NCBI RefSeq assembly: GCF_054482595.1 | Contig: NZ_CM137008.1 | Strand: one strand, 5' to 3' | DNA length: 64,000 bases | Part shown: one piece after another, positions 131 through 9,768 of the stretch | Numbering within the stretch: the first letter of the stretch is position 1 | Layout of the letters: the number at the start of each line of letters is the position of its first letter | Notes under the pieces: model-generated | Databases searched by the model: none | Told to the model about the DNA's origin: nothing | Seen by the model: the letters and a program-made list of their open reading frames with translations, nothing else | Made by a program: the position numbers and the translations under genes

Positions 131-2797
131 ATGGAACCTTTTAAATATATATGCCATTACTGGGGAAAATCCTCAAAAAGCCTGACGAAAGGAAATGATA
201 TTCATCTGTTAATTTATCATTGCCTTGATGTTGCTGCTGTTGCAGATTGCTGGTGGGATCAATCAGTCGTACTGCAAAATACTTTTTGCCGAAATGAAAT
301 GCTATCAAAACAGAGGGTGAAGGCCTGGCTGTTATTTTTCATTGCTCTTCATGATATTGGAAAGTTTGATATACGATTCCAATATAAATCAGCAGAAAGT
401 TGGCTGAAATTAAATCCTGCAACGCCATCACTTAATGGTCCATCAACACAAATGTGCCGTAAATTTAATCATGGTGCAGCCGGTCTGTATTGGTTTAACC
501 AGGATTCACTTTCAGAGCAATCTCCCGGGGATTTTTTCAGTTTTTTTGATGCCGCTCCTCATCCTTATGAGTCCTGGTTTCCATGGGTAGAGGCCGTTAC
601 AGGACATCATGGTTTTATATTACATTCCCAGGATCAAGATAAGTCGCGTTGGGAAATGCCAGCTTCTCTGGCATCTTATGCTGCGCAAGATAAACAGGCT
701 CGTGAGGAGTGGATATCTGTACTCGAAGCATTATTTTTAACGCCAGCCGGGTTATCTATAAACGATATACCACCTGATTGTTCATCACTGTTAGCAGGTT
801 TTTGCTCGCTTGCTGACTGGTTAGGTTCCTGGACCACAACGGATACCTTTCTTTTCAAAGAAGATGCACCTTCAGGAATACAAGCGCTAAGAACATATTT
901 TCAGGATAGACAGCAGGATGCGTGTCGGGTACTGGCGCTGAGTGGCCTTGTATCAAATAAGCGTCGTTATGACGGTGTACATGCCTTACTGGACAATGGC
1001 TATCAACCAAGACAATTACAGGTGTTGGTCGATGCTCTTCCTACAGCTCCCGGGCTGACGGTGATTGAGGCACCTACGGGATCAGGTAAAACCGAAACAG
1101 CGCTGGCCTATGCCTGGAAACTTATTGACCAACAACTTGCGGAGAGTGTTATTTTTGCCCTCCCTACACAAGCTACTGCAAATACAATGCTCAGCAGAAT
1201 GGAAGCGAACGCGAGCCGTTTATTTACCTCCCCAAATCTTATTCTTGCTCATGGTAATTCACGTTTTAACCACCTTTTTCAATCAATAAAATCACGCGCA
1301 TTTACTGAGCAGGGGCAAGAAGAAGCGTGGGTTCAGTGTTGTCAGTGGTTGTCACAAAGCAATAAGAAAGTGTTTCTTGGGCAAATCGGCGTTTGCACTA
1401 TTGATCAGGTGTTGATATCGGTATTGCCAGTTAAACACCGCTTTATCCGTGGTTTGGGAATTGGTCGAAGTGTTTTAATTGTTGATGAAGTTCATGCTTA
1501 CGACACCTATATGAACGGCTTGCTGGAGGCAGTGCTCAAGGCTCAGGCTGATGTGGGAGGGAGTGTTATTCTTCTTTCCGCAACCCTACCAATGAAACAA
1601 AAACAGAAACTTCTGGATACTTATGGTCTGCATACAGATCCAGTGGAAAATAACTCCGCATATCCACTTATTAACTGGCGAGGTGTGAATGGTGCGCAAC
1701 GTTTTGATCTGCCAGCTCATCCAGAACAACTCCCGCCCCGCTTTTCGATTCAGCCAGAACCTATTTATTTAGCTGACATGTTACCTGACCTTACGATGTT
1801 AGAGCGAATGATCGCAGCGGCAAACGCGGGTGCACAAGTCTGCCTCATTTGCAATTTGGTTGACGTTGCACAACTATGCTTCCAACGGCTAAAGGAACTA
1901 AATGACACGCAAGTAGATATAGATTTGTTTCATGCGCGCTTTACGCTGAACGATCGTCGTGAAAAAGAGAATCGTGTCATTAGCAATTTCGGAAAAAATG
2001 GGGAGCGAAATGTTGGACGAATACTTGTCGCCACCCAGGTCGTGGAACAATCACTCGATGTAGATTTTGATTGGTTAATTACCCAGCATTGTCCCGCTGA
2101 TTTGCTTTTCCAACGATTAGGCCGTTTACATCGCCATCATCGTAAATATCGTCCCGCCGGTTTTGAGATTCCTCTGGCAACCGTTTTGCTGCCTGATGGC
2201 GAAGGTTACGGACGACATGAGCATATTTATAGCAACGTTAGAGTCATGTGGCGGACGCAGCAACATATTGAGGAACTTAATGGAGCATCCTTATTTTTCC
2301 CTGATGCCTACCGGCAATGGCTGGATAGCATTTACGATGATGCTGAAATGGATGAGCCAGAATGGGTCATCAAAGGCATGGATAAGTTTGAAAGCGCTGA
2401 GTGTGAAAAGAGGTTCAAGGCTCGCAAGGTTCTGCAGTGGGCTGAAGAATATAGTTTGCAGGATAACGATGAAACCATTCTTGCGGTAACGAGGGATGGG
2501 GAAATGAGCCTGCCATTATTGCCTTATGTACAAACGTCTTCAGGTAAACAACTGCTCGATGGCCAGGTCTACGAGGACCTAAGTCATGAACAGCAGTATG
2601 AGGCTTTAGCACTTAATCGCGTCAATGTGCCATTTACCTGGAAACGTAGTTTTTCTGAAGTAGTCGATGAAGATGGGTTACTTTGGCTGGAAGGAAGGCA
2701 GAATCAGGATGGATGGATCTGGCAGGGTAACAGTATTGTTATTACCTACACTCGGGATGAAGGGATGACCAGAGTCATCCCTGCAAATCCCAAATAA
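131..2797 (+). CDS. cas3: Cas3 HD-nuclease/helicase, type I-E (888 aa)
   Basis: ORF translation matches remembered E. coli Cas3/YgcB at full length; followed by casABCDE-cas1-cas2 and CRISPR array. Confidence 0.95.
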   Translation: MEPFKYICHYWGKSSKSLTKGNDIHLLIYHCLDVAAVADCWWDQSVVLQNTFCRNEMLSKQRVKAWLLFFIALHDIGKFDIRFQYKSAESWLKLNPATPSLNGPSTQMCRKFNHGAAGLYWFNQDSLSEQSPGDFFSFFDAAPHPYESWFPWVEAVTGHHGFILHSQDQDKSRWEMPASLASYAAQDKQAREEWISVLEALFLTPAGLSINDIPPDCSSLLAGFCSLADWLGSWTTTDTFLFKEDAPSGIQALRTYFQDRQQDACRVLALSGLVSNKRRYDGVHALLDNGYQPRQLQVLVDALPTAPGLTVIEAPTGSGKTETALAYAWKLIDQQLAESVIFALPTQATANTMLSRMEANASRLFTSPNLILAHGNSRFNHLFQSIKSRAFTEQGQEEAWVQCCQWLSQSNKKVFLGQIGVCTIDQVLISVLPVKHRFIRGLGIGRSVLIVDEVHAYDTYMNGLLEAVLKAQADVGGSVILLSATLPMKQKQKLLDTYGLHTDPVENNSAYPLINWRGVNGAQRFDLPAHPEQLPPRFSIQPEPIYLADMLPDLTMLERMIAAANAGAQVCLICNLVDVAQLCFQRLKELNDTQVDIDLFHARFTLNDRREKENRVISNFGKNGERNVGRILVATQVVEQSLDVDFDWLITQHCPADLLFQRLGRLHRHHRKYRPAGFEIPLATVLLPDGEGYGRHEHIYSNVRVMWRTQQHIEELNGASLFFPDAYRQWLDSIYDDAEMDEPEWVIKGMDKFESAECEKRFKARKVLQWAEEYSLQDNDETILAVTRDGEMSLPLLPYVQTSSGKQLLDGQVYEDLSHEQQYEALALNRVNVPFTWKRSFSEVVDEDGLLWLEGRQNQDGWIWQGNSIVITYTRDEGMTRVIPANPK

Positions 2798-3211
2798 CTT
2801 CGGGAATGATTGGTATCAATGACGATAACAAGACCAATAACGGTTTATCCCTACTTAAGTAGGGAAGGTGCACAATGTACATCTTCTTTTAATTTCCCGG
2901 TATGAGATTTTATATTCGCAGTATGAATATTTTATGTAATAAAATTTATGGTAATTATTATAACTAAAAGTTTCTTTGATAATAAAACGAATAACTTGCA
3001 GATTTGAAATGCATGCATTATTGTCTTTAAACAATTCAACACATCTTAATATATGTATAGGTTAATTGTATTAAACCAATGAATATATTTTTGCAGTGAA
3101 TGTGATTATTGAATTAATTACGCCGTATTTTTTCTTTGTTTTTACCGATAACGGAAGTGTGCCGACGTATAGAAATGCAGGAGAAATGTCGGAGCATATG
3201 AAGGAGAACAA
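2798..3211. promoter_or_regulatory. AT-rich cas3-casA intergenic region; expected location of the cas operon promoter (H-NS/LeuO controlled in K-12); contains a 16-bp perfect palindrome at 2849-2864
   Basis: Position and AT-richness seen in sequence; promoter assignment by analogy to K-12, no motif mapped precisely. Confidence 0.45.
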
Positions 3212-4720
3212 ATGAATTTGCTTATTGATAACTGGATCCCTGTACGCCCGCGAAACGGGGGGAAAGTCCAAATCATAAATCTGCAATCGCTATACTGCAG
3301 TAGAGATCAGTGGCGATTAAGTTTGCCCCGTGACGATATGGAACTGGCCGCTTTAGCACTGCTGGTTTGCATTGGGCAAATTATCGACCCGGCAAAAGAT
3401 GACGTTGAATTTCGACATCGCATAATGAATCCGTTCACTGAAGATGGGTTTCAACAACTCATCGCGCCGTGGATAGATATGTTCTACCTTAATCACGCAG
3501 AACATCCCTTTATGCAGACCAAAGGTGTCAAAGCAAATGATGTGACTCCAATGGAAAAACTGTTGGCAGGGGTAAGCGGCGCGACGAATTGTGCTTTTGT
3601 CAATCAACCGGGTCAGGGTGAAGCATTATGTGGTGGATGCACTGCGATTGCGTTATTCAACCAGGCGAATCAGGCACCTGGTTTTGGTGGTGGCTTTAAA
3701 AGTGGTTTACGTGGAGGAACACCTATAACCACCTTCGTACGTGGGATCGATCTTCGCTCGACGGTGTTACTCAATGTCCTCACAATACCTCGTCTTCAAA
3801 AACAATTTCCCAATGAATCACATACGGAAAACCAACCTACCTGGGTTAAGCCTGTCAAACCCAATGAATCTGTGCCAGCTTCGTCAATTGGCTTTGTCCG
3901 CGGCTTATTCTGGCAACCAGCGCATATTGAATTATGCGACCCCATTGGGATTGGAAAATGTTCTTGCTGTGGGCAGGAAAGCAATTTGCGTTATACCGGT
4001 TTTCTTAAGGAAAAATTTACCTTTACAGTTAATGGGCTATGGCCCCATCCGCATTCCCCTTGTCTGGTAACAGTCAAGAAAGGGGAGGTTGAGGAAAAAT
4101 TTCTTGCTTTCACCACCTCCGCACCATCATGGACACAAATCAGCCGAGTTGTGGTAGATAAGATTATTCAAAATGAAAATGGAAATCGCGTGGCGGCGGT
4201 TGTGAATCAATTCAGAAATATTGCGCCGCAAAGTCCTCTTGAATTGATTATGGGGGGATATCGTAATAATCAAGCATCTATTCTTGAACGGCGTCATGAT
4301 GTGTTGATGTTTAATCAGGGGTGGCAACAATACGGCAATGTGATAAACGAAATAGTGACTGTTGGTTTGGGATATAAAACAGCCTTACGCAAGGCGTTAT
4401 ATACCTTTGCAGAAGGGTTTAAAAATAAAGACTTCAAAGGGGCCGGAGTTTCTGTTCATGAGACTGCAGAAAGGCATTTCTATCGACAGAGTGAATTATT
4501 AATTCCCGATGTACTGGCGAATATTAATTTTTCCCAGGCTGATGAGGTAATAGCTGATTTACGAGACAAACTTCATCAATTGTGTGAAATGCTATTTAAT
4601 CAATCTGTAGCTCCCTATGCACATCATCCTAAATTAATAAACACATTAGCGCTTGCCCGCGCCACGCTATACAAACATTTACGGGAGTTAAAACCGCAAG
4701 GAGGGCCATCAAATGGCTGA
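3212..4720 (+). CDS. casA: Cascade large subunit CasA/Cse1 (502 aa)
   Basis: ORF length and N-terminus MNLLIDNWIPVRPRNGGKVQIINL match E. coli CasA. Confidence 0.95.
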   Translation: MNLLIDNWIPVRPRNGGKVQIINLQSLYCSRDQWRLSLPRDDMELAALALLVCIGQIIDPAKDDVEFRHRIMNPFTEDGFQQLIAPWIDMFYLNHAEHPFMQTKGVKANDVTPMEKLLAGVSGATNCAFVNQPGQGEALCGGCTAIALFNQANQAPGFGGGFKSGLRGGTPITTFVRGIDLRSTVLLNVLTIPRLQKQFPNESHTENQPTWVKPVKPNESVPASSIGFVRGLFWQPAHIELCDPIGIGKCSCCGQESNLRYTGFLKEKFTFTVNGLWPHPHSPCLVTVKKGEVEEKFLAFTTSAPSWTQISRVVVDKIIQNENGNRVAAVVNQFRNIAPQSPLELIMGGYRNNQASILERRHDVLMFNQGWQQYGNVINEIVTVGLGYKTALRKALYTFAEGFKNKDFKGAGVSVHETAERHFYRQSELLIPDVLANINFSQADEVIADLRDKLHQLCEMLFNQSVAPYAHHPKLINTLALARATLYKHLRELKPQGGPSNG

Positions 4721-5195
4721 TGAAATTGATGCAATGGCTTTATATCGAGCCTGGCAACAACTGGATAATGGAGCATGTGCGCAAATTAGACGTGTTTCAG
4801 AACCTGATGAATTACGCGATATCCCTGCGTTTTATAGGCTGGTGCAACCTTTTGGTTGGGAAAACCCACGTCACCAGCAGGCTCTTTTGCGCATGGTGTT
4901 TTGCCTGAGCGCAGGAAAGAATGTCATCCGACATCAGGACAAAAAACCGGAGCAAACAACAGGTATCTCGTTGGGAAGAGCTTTAGCCAATAGTGGAAGA
5001 ATTAACGAGCGCCGTATCTTTCAATTAATTCGGGCTGACAGAACAGCCGATATGGTCCAGTTACGTCGATTACTTACTCACGCCGAACCCGTACTTGACT
5101 GGCCATTAATGGCCAGGATGTTGACCTGGTGGGGAAAGCGCGAACGCCAGCAACTTCTGGAAGATTTTGTATTGACCACAAACAAAAATGCGTAA
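4713..5195 (+). CDS. casB: Cascade small subunit CasB/Cse2 (160 aa)
   Basis: 160-aa ORF overlapping casA stop, operon position. Confidence 0.93.
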   Translation: MADEIDAMALYRAWQQLDNGACAQIRRVSEPDELRDIPAFYRLVQPFGWENPRHQQALLRMVFCLSAGKNVIRHQDKKPEQTTGISLGRALANSGRINERRIFQLIRADRTADMVQLRRLLTHAEPVLDWPLMARMLTWWGKRERQQLLEDFVLTTNKNA

Positions 5196-8885: not shown

Positions 8886-9768
8886 GAGTTCCCCGCGCCA
8901 GCGGGGATAAACCGCATTTAATGCAAAACTAATTGCACAATAAATAGAGTTCCCCGCGCCAGCGGGGATAAACCGGCGATAAACCTCCTCATCGCTGATA
9001 TCAATAAGAGTTCCCCGCGCCAGCGGGGATAAACCGATAAAGGCTCGGCGGCGCAAAAAATGGCACGGGAGTTCCCCGCGCCAGCGGGGATAAACCGCTC
9101 TCGTTGTTGTGCCTCAGTACCGGTGCGCGGAGTTCCCCGCGCCAGCGGGGATAAACCGCACACCGGTGCGACGGGAAACGTTCAGCGGCCGAGTTCCCCG
9201 CGCCAGCGGGGATAAACCGGGAATAGTTAATTTCGGTGATGGCTGCGTAAAGAGTTCCCCGCGGCAGCGGGGATAAACCGAGTAATGCTGCGTTGAGATG
9301 ACCAGGCGGGCTGAGTTCCCCGCGGCAGCGGGGATAAACCGTTGACGCCAGCGGCGACCCGCGCCACGGGCTTGAGTTCCCCGCGCCAGCGGGGATAAAC
9401 CGTAGCCAGACGTACTCGCAATCTGTCGGCGGTCGAGTTCCCCGCGCCAGCGGGGATAAACCACCAGTTCTCCGTATTCTGTGGTTATCGTTGCTGAGTT
9501 CCCCGCGCCAGCGGGGATAAACCGGGAGTTCAGACATAGGTGGAATGATGGACTACGAGTTCCCCGCGTTAGCGGGGATAAACCGCCCGGTAGCCAGGTT
9601 TGCAACGCCTGAACCGAGAGTTCCCCGCGCCAGCAGGGATAAACCGGCAACGACGGTGAGATTTCACGCCTGACGCTGGTGTTCCCCGCGCCAGCGGGGA
9701 TAAACCGGGCGCACTGGATGCGATGATGGATATCACTGAGAATTCCCCGCCCCTGCGGTAGAACACCC
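8886..9768 (+). CRISPR. Type I-E CRISPR array: 15 repeats of 29 bp (GAGTTCCCCGCGCCAGCGGGGATAAACCG) and 14 spacers of 31-33 bp, period ~61 bp; terminal repeat at 9740-9768 is degenerate
   Basis: Repeat starts at 8886, 8947, 9007, 9069, 9130, 9191, 9252, 9313, 9374, 9435, 9496, 9557, 9618, 9679, 9740; variants in repeats 7, 8, 10, 12, 13, 14. Confidence 0.97.

Follow-up and report, generated by a model that had tools for sequence, protein, structure and literature searches.

[quoted passage not shown] 2023 (PMC10120712; NAR 2023). According to the accessible part of that preprint, it is composed of two repeat-like sequences antisense to cas3, of which the upstream one is better preserved, and its target carries an AAG PAM and sixth-position mismatches and overlaps an H-NS site immediately upstream of the casA promoter (Pcas); the evidence presented there for the E. 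coli locus is computational. In Salmonella enterica, the type I-E CreR represses PcasA 8.6-fold with the Cascade of E. coli MG1655, and overexpressing a crRNA or AcrIE8 lifts this repression (Liu et al. 2023, bioRxiv 10.1101/2023.03.10.532045). CreA of the type I-B CreTA system of Haloarcula (Li et al. 2021, as summarised in later work) is a crRNA-like RNA from a degenerate mini-array that places Cascade on a partially matching, PAM-flanked promoter, resulting in repression without cleavage; its main target is the promoter of a toxin gene (creT), which renders the cas genes addictive. Finally, phage-encoded Racr/Cracr elements (bioRxiv 10.1101/2024.10.29.618823) provide repeat-like RNAs that are loaded into Cas effectors; the I-E Cracrs mimic the host CreR and undergo Cas-dependent maturation with an 8-nt handle.

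The present analysis concerns a perfect palindrome in the cas3-casA intergenic region of a 64-kb stretch of DNA (the window), for which a sequence-only reading had proposed either a regulator binding site or a structure of the cas3 3′ end. We consider it about 80% probable that the palindrome corresponds to the stem-loop of psiR1 within a degenerate CRISPR mini-array of two repeats (psiR1-psiS-psiR2, psiR1 being the better preserved), located between cas3 and casA on the minus strand (2869→2781), and that this element is CreR-like and regulatory. It appears to be the same object as the mini-array in the accessible part of Shmakov et al. 2023, the features of which were re-derived independently here; the feature is real and functionally meaningful, but already known. 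Its repeat ancestry, architecture and strand, the PAM-flanked partial target and the co-evolution of spacer and target are established in the present analysis. Beyond the accessible content of the preprint are the spacer/target covariation within E. coli, the private spacer-target pairs of four other genera, the overlap of PAM and −35 element, the strand asymmetry of psiR2, and a hairpin in cas3.

With Salmonella CreR, the E. coli element shares a degenerate mini-CRISPR upstream of casA, a 5′ handle from psiR1, a 3′ hairpin from psiR2, and an AAG-flanked site at PcasA to which psiS matches in part. However, the cas locus variant, spacer and target are different, the Salmonella target comprising 15 consecutive matches ~140 bp upstream of casA, and CreR has been tested experimentally, whereas the E. 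coli element is known here from sequence. In contrast to CreA, it is the putative Pcas that adjoins the target, and no toxin partner is evident. Unlike Racr/Cracr, which reside on phages or plasmids and act against the host, the mini-array is chromosomal, and no copy of it was found in a phage collection.

The sequence CCCTACTTAAGTAGGG at 2849-2864 is indeed its own reverse complement over 16 bp; the perfect dyad reaches one base further on each side, yielding an 18-bp palindrome, TCCCTACTTAAGTAGGGA, at 2848-2865. The cas3 ORF (888 aa, plus strand, 131-2797), annotated in the matching RefSeq genomes, ends at 2797, so that the 16-mer starts 51 nt past the last stop-codon base, in agreement with the ~50 bp originally given; casA (plus strand, 3212-4720) is likewise supported by its ORF and the matching RefSeq genomes. 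The initial placement within the AT-rich region expected to hold the casA promoter stands only in part, as the palindrome is intergenic but occupies the cas3-proximal, less AT-rich edge (GC content 0.39 for 2798-2890 versus 0.23 for 2891-3130), ~165-180 bp upstream of the putative transcription start site (TSS) of casA. The argument that a perfect palindrome of this kind is unlikely by chance fails: on average, first-order Markov shuffles of the 64-kb window contained 1.3 perfect palindromes of at least 16 bp and 0.29 of at least 18 bp, with at least one of the latter in 25% of the shuffled windows. Another 18-bp palindrome in the window, inside casB (5099-5116), is not kept as a palindrome in other genera and looks coincidental. 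What makes the palindrome non-random is its match to the CRISPR repeat of its own locus and not the palindromy itself; that the symmetry is perfect over 16/18 bp is a mere by-product of a tetraloop that happens to read TTAA.

An intrinsic (Rho-independent) terminator was rejected for 2848-2865, where a GC-rich hairpin followed by a U-run is not present; a consensus scan found no terminator-like site there on either strand and, as had been observed before, no T-run follows the palindrome, the next bases being AGGTGCAC (plus strand) and TAAACCGT (minus strand). A REP/BIME-like dispersed palindrome was equally rejected, given its occurrence in one place per genome in 1127/1127 matching genomes and zero occurrences on plasmids.

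On the minus strand, the palindrome is embedded in psiR1 (2869→2841), a degenerate type I-E CRISPR repeat, ACCTTCCCTACTTAAGTAGGGATAAACCG, with 19/29 identity to the array repeat GAGTTCCCCGCGCCAGCGGGGATAAACCG. The latter belongs to a genuine CRISPR array of 14 repeats with a period of 61 (plus strand, 8886-9707), which is oriented opposite to the mini-array and provides the parent repeat of psiR1 and psiR2. In psiR1, the palindrome provides both the 7-bp stem and the UUAA tetraloop (minus strand, 2848-2865; U CCCUAC UUAA GUAGGG A). While the upper stem and loop of psiR1 are unlike those of the canonical repeat (10/29 bases differ; loop UUAA versus GCCA; fold −10.3 versus −15.1 kcal/mol), two stem pairs are swapped compensatorily, and the 3′ portion GGGATAAACCG, including the 8-nt crRNA 5′ handle, is intact. 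Specifically, the minus-strand 3′ end of psiR1 reads exactly GGGAUAAACCG, within which the handle AUAAACCG matches at 8/8 positions. For psiR1 and the array repeat, an identical dot-bracket structure is predicted in a common TTCCC...GGGATAAACCG frame. The pattern TCCC-N10-GGGATAAACCG, with 15 specified bases, matches only the CRISPR array repeats and the palindrome site, with 0.00 matches expected by chance. A covariance model trained on the array's 14 repeats returned psiR1 as the top non-array match (15.4 bits; E ~0.012, an E-value of rough calibration) and missed psiR2. A search of 2500-3500 with Rfam gave four chance matches to snoRNA models only (E 1.5-8.3) and no CRISPR direct-repeat family.

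Downstream of psiR1 on the minus strand follows psiS (2840→2810), a 31-nt pseudo-spacer, TTATTGGTCTTGTTATCGTCATTGATACCAA, the length of which lies within the range of 31-34 nt given for E. coli spacers in a review. It is preceded by CCG, which is no PAM; hence, psiS is without self-targeting. Exactly one 31-nt spacer downstream of psiR1, psiR2 (minus strand, 2809→2781) is a second repeat in a state of strong decay, TCATTCCCGAAGTTATTTGGGATTTGCAG, and overlaps with the stop codon of cas3 (2795-2797). It retains 14/29 identity and has lost the handle (UUUGCAG), with TTCCC...GGGA, the 7-bp stem and a tetraloop being kept. The psiR2 hairpin forms fully on the minus strand only (−8.5 kcal/mol, including a G.U pair, versus −4.3 kcal/mol on the plus strand). 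The mini-array lies outside of any array and on the strand opposite to the array, lacks a leader for spacer uptake, and contains a single, fixed pseudo-spacer. Taken as a CreR-type element, it shows a repeat-derived sequence in the cas locus outside of the array, a second degenerate repeat one spacer away, the 5′ handle in psiR1, the 3′ hairpin in psiR2, and a seed-matched, PAM-flanked site next to the predicted position of the cas promoter.

The best match of the psiS seed in the whole 64-kb window is a predicted Cascade target on the minus strand at 2964-2997, comprising a canonical AAG PAM (2997→2995) and a protospacer (2994→2964). Pairing extends over 14/15 base-pairing positions at 2994→2978 (psiS positions 1-5, 7-8, 10-11, 13-17); the mismatches are the flipped-out positions 6, 12 and 18, plus position 9. 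This match is discontinuous and located ~216 bp upstream of casA, and 0/20000 shuffled versions of psiS reach at least 13/15. From the LrhA/LeuO site numbering, the 7-5-7 palindrome mentioned below and the sequence, the putative Pcas is placed on the plus strand at 2996-3024, with the −35 element TTGCAG at 2996-3001, the −10 element TATTGT at 3019-3024, and a TSS at ~3029-3031; the target PAM would then overlap the −35 element by two bases. On the minus strand, a consensus scan points to a sigma-70-like promoter at 2954-2982 (−35 TTATCA, 17 nt, −10 AATAAT), a candidate for the anti-Pcas promoter discussed below, of which the −35 element overlaps the predicted Cascade target. A second promoter-like site from the consensus scan (minus strand, 2979-3008; −35 TTCAAA, 18 nt, −10 TATTAT) has its −10 element inside that target.

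Fragments of the cas3-casA intergenic region are known to be bound by SlyA, LeuO and LrhA. On Pcas numbering, the LrhA/LeuO sites LBS II and LBS I are at about −116 to −101 and +40 to +55, which would correspond to about 2912-2930 and about 3068-3086 in the window; the SlyA site, TTATTGAATTAA, is 100 bp upstream of casA. The 7-5-7 palindrome ATATTCGCAGTATGAATAT at 2912-2930 is probably the core of LeuO site IIa, which in K-12 is the perfect ATATTCA-CAGTA-TGAATAT. Regarding coding capacity, the program-made list contains the intergenic minus-strand ORFs 2855-3034 (59 aa), 3071-3286 and 3142-3276, none of which was recognised as a toxin; an RNA toxin would not show up in such a list.

The conservation check across E. 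coli asked for in the sequence-only reading came out in favour of a conserved element. Among the 1127 E. coli genomes carrying psiR1, in which it is unannotated in RefSeq, 1125 have a 100% identical copy, and 464/1133 genomes differ by 1-5% over the whole intergenic region. BLAST for distant E. coli variants gave none beyond the 1133 genomes; the intergenic region of the other cas variants of E. coli is unrelated. In two divergent haplotypes of E. coli, position 7 changes jointly in psiS and in the target (G:G to A:A), and the mismatch at position 9 is repaired. In K-12, psiS and target pair at 13/15 positions. All E. coli variants, as well as other genera, retain the psiR2 stem.

A scan of species-representative genomes with CasA, in the results of which E. 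coli was absent and Citrobacter amalonaticus was the closest relative (61%), revealed no perfect palindromes of at least 12 bp in the intergenic regions of these relatives. The non-conservation outside of E. coli suggested by this absence was overturned by an alignment showing a compensated hairpin in C. amalonaticus, where the stem of the psiR1 counterpart is held by compensatory changes, the loop CGGT is non-palindromic, and the asymmetric flank ACGGTTTAT is conserved. In C. amalonaticus, two Pantoea and Edaphovirga, a minus-strand repeat-like element of the same architecture is present with unrelated spacers. The handle in the other genera is ATAAACCG, with ATAAACCA in Pantoea 1.19, i.e., it agrees with AUAAACCG at 8/8 positions in 3/4 other genera and at 7/8 in Pantoea 1.19. 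For each of these spacers, there is a separate matching site with an AAG flank at a distance of 55-88 nt, with permutation counts of 0/5000, 1/5000, 173/5000 and 0/5000; the target match in Pantoea 1.19 is weak (10/15, p ~0.035). In 4/5 genera, the complement of the PAM continues into a −35-like hexamer, TTGnnn. Across genera, 94% of the cells of the hairpin alignment are paired versus 77.6% in shuffles, a value reached by 0/500 shuffles. In relatives with a cas3-casA overlap of 4 nt, a mini-array-like element is absent.

At the RNA level, the minus-strand RNA 2950→2750 folds with z = −4.34, and 0/200 shuffles fold as well; for the palindrome region, z is −3.06 on the minus strand versus −1.5 on the plus strand. 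Inside the 3′-terminal part of the coding sequence of cas3, a GC-rich hairpin, GGGAUGAC UCUG GUCAUCCC, is predicted on the minus strand at 2758-2785 (core 2762-2781; −15.5 kcal/mol, z −4.45), and hairpins of different sequence occur at the equivalent place of cas3 in Citrobacter, Pantoea and Edaphovirga. Assignment as a third repeat, psiR3, was rejected for the hairpin at 2762-2781, since it is out of register with the 60-nt period; therefore, it is treated as a 3′-end structure at which the mini-array RNA may end or be terminated.

For E. coli K-12, reviews of Pul et al. 2010 describe anti-Pcas, a promoter of divergent orientation that is repressed by H-NS and situated directly downstream of cas3, with a highly structured RNA of 150-200 nt antisense to the cas3 3′ end; its role was stated as unknown as late as 2023 in a review. 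With a predicted start at ~2947-2972 and an end at the hairpin at ~2758, the mini-array RNA would measure ~190-215 nt, and location, strand and size of both transcripts fit. Thus, anti-Pcas is probably the mini-array transcript, the start sites of Pcas and anti-Pcas being predicted positions as well. With somewhat less confidence than for the CreR-like nature of the element, we favour the reading that the anti-Pcas RNA of 2010 is the primary transcript of the CreR-like mini-array and ends at the cas3-embedded hairpin, and that its product puts Cascade on Pcas and on its own promoter, which would establish a double negative feedback once H-NS silencing is lifted. A link between the two was not found in the accessible literature on the mini-array prediction and on anti-Pcas; in the accessible part of the preprint of Shmakov et al. 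2023 (PMC10120712), anti-Pcas has 0 occurrences. The K-12 Term-seq tables (Adams 2021 supplement) contain no 3′ end in the intergenic region, and list a Rho-dependent signal inside casA (K-12 2883848). Considering that the locus is H-NS-silenced there, the empty region is uninformative rather than contrary.

Mechanistically, the divergent anti-Pcas promoter would drive transcription of the mini-array in antisense orientation to cas3, and Cas6e would cut at the base of both hairpins, releasing a crRNA-like RNA of ~60 nt composed of 5′-AUAAACCG, 31 nt and UCAUUCCCGAAGUUAUUUGGG-3′; this predicted product starts with AUAAACCGUUAUUGG. For Salmonella I-E CreR with E. coli Cascade, and likewise for I-E Cracr RNAs, maturation by Cas6, uptake into the effector and effector-dependent repression are on record. 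The protein likeliest to bind at the palindrome site would hence be Cas6e, acting on the RNA hairpin. Cascade loaded with this RNA may bind the AAG-flanked site 2997→2978 via 14 seed-proximal base pairs, which would place Cse1 on the −35 element of Pcas and on the promoter of the mini-array itself. As pairing would stop after position 17, the R-loop would remain incomplete and Cas3 unlicensed, so that no cleavage would ensue, the predicted outcome being transcriptional autorepression of the Cascade operon and the mini-array. Relief could occur as in the CreR model, when ordinary crRNAs compete or when Cascade is lost to anti-CRISPRs. According to Cooper et al. 2018, AAG plus seed are enough for Cascade binding in vivo, partial matches being bound without interference or priming, and short off-target binding of Cascade is without effect on expression. 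Their strains carried a cas3 deletion cassette and expressed the other cas genes constitutively; hence, the native promoter was presumably not intact, and their ChIP-seq is no test of the model.

Other explanations of the palindrome have to be weighed against the regulatory mini-array. The one retaining the repeat ancestry, a decaying, non-functional relic of ectopic CRISPR repeats that drift between cas3 and casA, would account for the low identity of psiR2 (14/29) and its being missed by the covariance model, and the accessible part of Shmakov et al. 2023 mentions a sporadic origin of stand-alone repeats and, for type III, examples that resemble degraded, non-functional repeats. We regard such a relic as unlikely, given the invariance of psiR1 (1125/1127 genomes) within an intergenic region that differs by 1-5% in 464/1133 genomes, the compensatory changes maintaining the stems across genera, the occurrence of a different spacer with its own PAM-flanked target in each genus, and, within E. 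coli, the covariation of spacer and target together with a target match far above chance. At the other extreme, a meaningless chance palindrome is what the shuffled windows (~1.3 palindromes of at least 16 bp per window; 18 bp in 25%) and the seemingly coincidental casB palindrome would suggest if the symmetry were considered in isolation; as the CRISPR-repeat match reaches beyond the palindrome (0.00 expected) and is accompanied by the architecture, the target and cross-genus conservation, this can practically be dismissed.

The two mechanisms offered by the sequence-only reading, a protein operator and a cas3 3′ structure, are mostly wrong, although its expectation of a non-random element, conserved and linked to cas regulation, was justified. 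A plus-strand hairpin in the cas3 3′ UTR that stops or stabilises the transcript, which could also be an additional role of the element, is improbable, albeit not to the degree of the operator. The symmetric hairpin is equally good on the plus strand (−10.3 kcal/mol) and situated ~50 nt past the cas3 stop, and the discoverers of anti-Pcas suggested, according to a review, that the RNA could interfere with cas3 termination or translation; yet the evidence points to an RNA of the opposite strand, as no T-run and no plus-strand terminator-like call exist, plus-strand folding is ordinary (z −1.5 versus −3.06), the conserved flanking bases are a crRNA handle on the minus strand, psiR2 is a good hairpin on that strand only, and the Term-seq tables, for an H-NS-silenced locus, have no 3′ end at the palindrome. 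A palindromic DNA operator for a dimeric factor (an H-NS antagonist, LeuO, SlyA, LrhA, CRP or an unknown regulator) would explain the perfect two-fold symmetry in a region crowded with regulator sites, but is very improbable. The sites mapped or proposed for SlyA, LeuO and LrhA lie at other positions, the palindrome is ~165-180 bp upstream of the putative TSS, GC-rich and thus unlike H-NS or LeuO sites, and present once per genome; moreover, C. amalonaticus has replaced inner stem bases and the loop CGGT, yet the asymmetric flank ACGGTTTAT is conserved.

Type I-E CRISPR is studied with E. coli K-12 as the reference system, in which the cas3-casA intergenic region has been analysed in detail for control by H-NS, LeuO, CRP, SlyA, StpA and LrhA. 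If Cascade represses itself via a built-in guide RNA, this would bear on how results from hns-deficient or LeuO-overproducing cells are read; reporter fusions with and without the mini-array or its target could differ in behaviour, and so could strains with replacements of both cas3 and the native promoter. For annotation, short palindromes near cas promoters should be checked, strand by strand, against the CRISPR repeat of the same locus. If true, the regulatory reading would also provide a function for the anti-Pcas RNA of 2010 and explain the invariance of psiR1 in more than 1100 genomes.

The 16-mer CCCTACTTAAGTAGGG at 2849-2864 is its own reverse complement, as stated in the sequence-only reading, and extends to a full perfect palindrome of 18 bp (TCCCTACTTAAGTAGGGA, 2848-2865). 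Since the cas3 ORF (888 aa) occupies 131-2797, the palindrome starts 50-51 nt past the cas3 stop, matching the ~50 bp noted earlier, and lies ahead of the casA ORF (3212-4720). The reported lack of a T-tract is equally borne out, with no T-run following the palindrome and no terminator-like site called there on either strand. The observation is confirmed, and its interpretation is partly supported. Taken alone, the bare palindrome is unremarkable: Markov shuffles of the window contain on average 1.3 perfect palindromes of at least 16 bp and 0.29 of at least 18 bp, and a second perfect 18-bp palindrome (CTGGCCATTAATGGCCAG, 5099-5116) lies inside casB (4713-5195), so that the claim of it being unlikely by chance does not hold. 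The casB palindrome codes for D-W-P-L-M-A-R and looks coincidental, because the corresponding codons of six other genera do not preserve the palindrome; two 18-bp palindromes per window occur in 3.5% of shuffles.

The palindrome lies within a degenerate CRISPR repeat on the minus strand, psiR1 (2869->2841, ACCTTCCCTACTTAAGTAGGGATAAACCG). The genuine CRISPR array of the window (8886-9707, plus strand) comprises 14 repeats, GAGTTCCCCGCGCCAGCGGGGATAAACCG, with a period of 61. Identity between psiR1 and this repeat is 19/29, with a 7-bp stem and a tetraloop in common and two stem pairs swapped compensatorily. The 3' end of psiR1, GGGATAAACCG, is identical to the array repeat and contains the 8-nt crRNA 5' handle AUAAACCG. 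Scored with a covariance model of the 14 array repeats, the psiR1 site reaches 15.4 bits (E about 0.012, roughly calibrated), more than any other non-array position in the window. The perfect DNA symmetry is incidental, because the tetraloop is TTAA.

Exactly 31 nt beyond psiR1 along the minus strand follows psiR2 (2809->2781, TCATTCCCGAAGTTATTTGGGATTTGCAG), a hairpin of the same design, which retains TTCCC...GGGA, has 14/29 identity to the repeat and covers the cas3 stop codon. Given this second repeat-type hairpin, the unit is psiR1-psiS-psiR2, psiS being the pseudo-spacer (2840->2810, minus strand, TTATTGGTCTTGTTATCGTCATTGATACCAA). The complete 7-bp psiR2 hairpin forms only on the minus strand, via a G.U pair (-8.5 vs -4.3 kcal/mol); therefore, the minus strand is the RNA strand. 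CreA and CreR show the same pattern of a handle kept in psiR1 and a hairpin kept in psiR2 (Liu et al. 2023). In the twelve repeat-like sequences collected from five genera, pairing holds in 94% of stem cells vs 77.6% in shuffles (0/500 as high), with covariation in the upper three stem pairs, and the minus-strand RNA 2950->2750 folds much more stably than shuffled sequences (z = -4.34). We put the probability that the element is, by ancestry and architecture, a CreR-like degenerate CRISPR mini-array at about 95%; the earlier proposal of a cas regulatory element was partly right in spirit but wrong in mechanism.

The psiR2 loop (2795-2798) overlaps the cas3 stop codon; in E. coli AHM8C212RI (cas locus L033, 301-320) it reads GCUG instead of GUUA, which leaves the psiR2 stem intact but abolishes the stop, and Cas3 is annotated there with 4 additional residues. 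A GC-rich hairpin in the last ~12 cas3 codons (2758-2785, core 2762-2781; GGGATGAC-CAGA-GTCATCCC, -15.5 kcal/mol) recurs at the same cas3 3'-end place in loci of Citrobacter, Pantoea and Edaphovirga (L009 1146-1169; L011 1100-1122; L012 1127-1147; L027 1128-1155). Since the stem sequences differ among genera, conservation seems to lie in the structure and not in the peptide; the hairpin may form the terminator or 3' end of the mini-array's antisense RNA.

When psiS was scanned against both strands of the whole window, one site stood out as the best seed match, at 2994->2964 on the minus strand, with the canonical I-E PAM AAG directly in front of it (2997->2995). Positions 1-5, 7-8, 10-11 and 13-17 match, none past position 18 does, and the mismatches fall on positions 6, 12 and 18, which are unpaired in Cascade, as remarked for the E. 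coli locus (Shmakov et al. 2023), and on position 9. Against the observed 14/15, 0/20000 shuffled spacers attained 13/15 at an intergenic site bearing a functional PAM. The target overlaps two minus-strand promoter-like sites from a promoter scan. We infer that the TTGCAG hexamer overlapped by the target PAM is the -35 of Pcas: LeuO/LrhA sites are published at -116..-101 and +40..+55 relative to the Pcas start; together with a 7-5-7 palindrome at 2912-2930, this numbering places the start near 3029-3031. K-12 has a perfect 7-5-7 palindrome (ATATTCA CAGTA TGAATAT) as its probable high-affinity LeuO core site; at window 2918 (K-12 2884432), as in strain E2528-C1, G replaces A in its left half-site, which might weaken LeuO activation. 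Farther downstream, at window ~3502 (K-12 2883848), a casA-strand signal internal to casA is listed in the supplement of Adams et al. 2021, in a table that appears to hold Rho-dependent (bicyclomycin-sensitive) sites, which suggests premature termination in the first 300 nt of casA.

The window derives from an E. coli with a K-12-type I-E cas locus. Its 426-bp cas3-casA interval is 100% identical to that of strain XH990 and 98.8% to K-12, and was found in 1133/5426 complete E. coli genomes, single-copy and chromosomal in every case. Conservation across these intergenic regions, suggested earlier as a check, is evident: the palindrome (K-12 2884485-2884502; K-12 coordinate = 2887350 - window position) falls within a 56-column block that is invariant in an alignment of six variants, one at 88.5% identity, and a 40-nt query spanning it is 100% identical in 1125/1127 genomes, without any annotated feature. 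Across seven variants, psiR1 and the PAM are unchanged and psiS/target positions 6 and 12 are free to vary. Position 7 is A in both psiS and target of two divergent haplotypes, JNE151685 and AHM8C212RI, and G in both elements of the other variants; in these two haplotypes, position 9 is also matched. Strain 1506 (locus L006, 4001-4868) is a natural knockout of the entire regulatory region: an IS1 is inserted 38 nt past the cas3 stop (breakpoint at window 2835), the remaining intergenic region and casA are gone, removing psiR1, target and Pcas, and cas7e is split by a second IS1.

Relatives were sought in 24 loci gathered via CasA relatives in species-representative genomes. In most of the more distant ones, the cas3 stop and casA start overlap by 4 nt, without an intergenic region (L010, L013, L014, L016, L018-L025 and L030, position ~1500). 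Only six loci have an interval of 180-370 nt, namely those of Citrobacter amalonaticus, two Pantoea, Edaphovirga, Erwinia sp. OLFS4 (183 nt) and a Thiotrichaceae MAG, and none of the six contains a perfect palindrome. C. amalonaticus has ACGGTTTA-TCCCCGC-CGGT-GCGGGGA-AG, aligned to ACGGTTTA-TCCCTAC-TTAA-GTAGGGA-AG in E. coli; flanks are identical and the stem is retained through compensatory changes, but palindromy is lost because the loop CGGT is non-palindromic. [quoted passage not shown] Four of the five Enterobacterales loci with an interval have a clear minus-strand mini-array with the handle ATAAACC(G/A) and unrelated spacers, each with a private, AAG-flanked partial target located 55-88 nt away in the direction of casA: C. 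amalonaticus (14/15 matches; permutation 0/5000), Pantoea GD03673 (13/15; 1/5000), Pantoea 1.19 (10/15; 173/5000) and Edaphovirga (13/15; 0/5000). In 4/5 genera, CTT, the complement of the PAM, continues into TTGnnn, a -35-like hexamer. No repeat-like sequence was found in the Erwinia interval (L028). The cas3-casA spacer of the Thiotrichaceae MAG, a distant gammaproteobacterium, holds a repeat-like hairpin with a differing handle (TTGTTCCCCACATCCGTGGGGATGAGGGC, L026 1168-1196), for which no convincing PAM-flanked target was found.

Against this background, a chance palindrome is excluded, given that the pattern TCCC-N10-GGGATAAACCG matches the array repeats and the psiR1 site only (0.00 expected). 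A DNA operator bound by a regulator, one of the two earlier proposals, would draw on the symmetry itself and is contradicted by the compensated stem and non-palindromic loop of the Citrobacter orthologue as well as by known regulator sites lying at other positions. Because the stem can form on either strand, the other proposal, a cas3 3'-end structure, may apply as an additional role; it is not supported as the main reading: a U-run is missing, and both psiR2 and the conserved flank belong to the minus strand. Descent from a CRISPR repeat would also fit a functionless relic, which is, however, contradicted by psiR1 invariance, compensatory changes in the stems and spacer/target co-evolution.

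The CreR-like mini-array has already been described, as a prediction: Shmakov et al. 2023 report that the stretch from cas3 to cas8e in the E. coli I-E locus holds a mini-array read in the opposite direction to cas3; its target is AAG-flanked, shows sixth-position mismatches and overlaps the H-NS site directly upstream of Pcas. In the literature consulted, no experiment on the native E. coli element was found. According to reviews, work from 2010 reported a divergent anti-Pcas promoter that is repressed by H-NS and situated just downstream of cas3, and its structured RNA of 150-200 nt was still said to have an unknown role in 2023. The Shmakov et al. preprint makes no mention of anti-Pcas, and no link to mini-arrays was found in the consulted papers that use that term; by location, strand and size, the mini-array transcript is compatible with the anti-Pcas RNA.

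The element has the anatomy of a crRNA-like regulatory RNA. In E. coli in vivo, AAG plus seed pairing is enough for Cascade binding, and partial matches trigger no interference and no priming (Cooper et al. 2018). A Salmonella I-E CreR with MG1655 Cascade represses its PcasA 8.6-fold, and either an excess of crRNA or AcrIE8 lifts this repression (Liu et al. 2023). A corresponding mechanism is likely for the native element: the anti-Pcas promoter would drive mini-array transcription, Cas6e would cut at the bases of both hairpins, and the resulting ~60-nt RNA would be loaded into Cascade, which would bind the AAG-flanked site via about 14 seed-proximal pairs, thereby occluding Pcas and the mini-array's own promoter without licensing Cas3, so that Cascade would repress its own cas genes.
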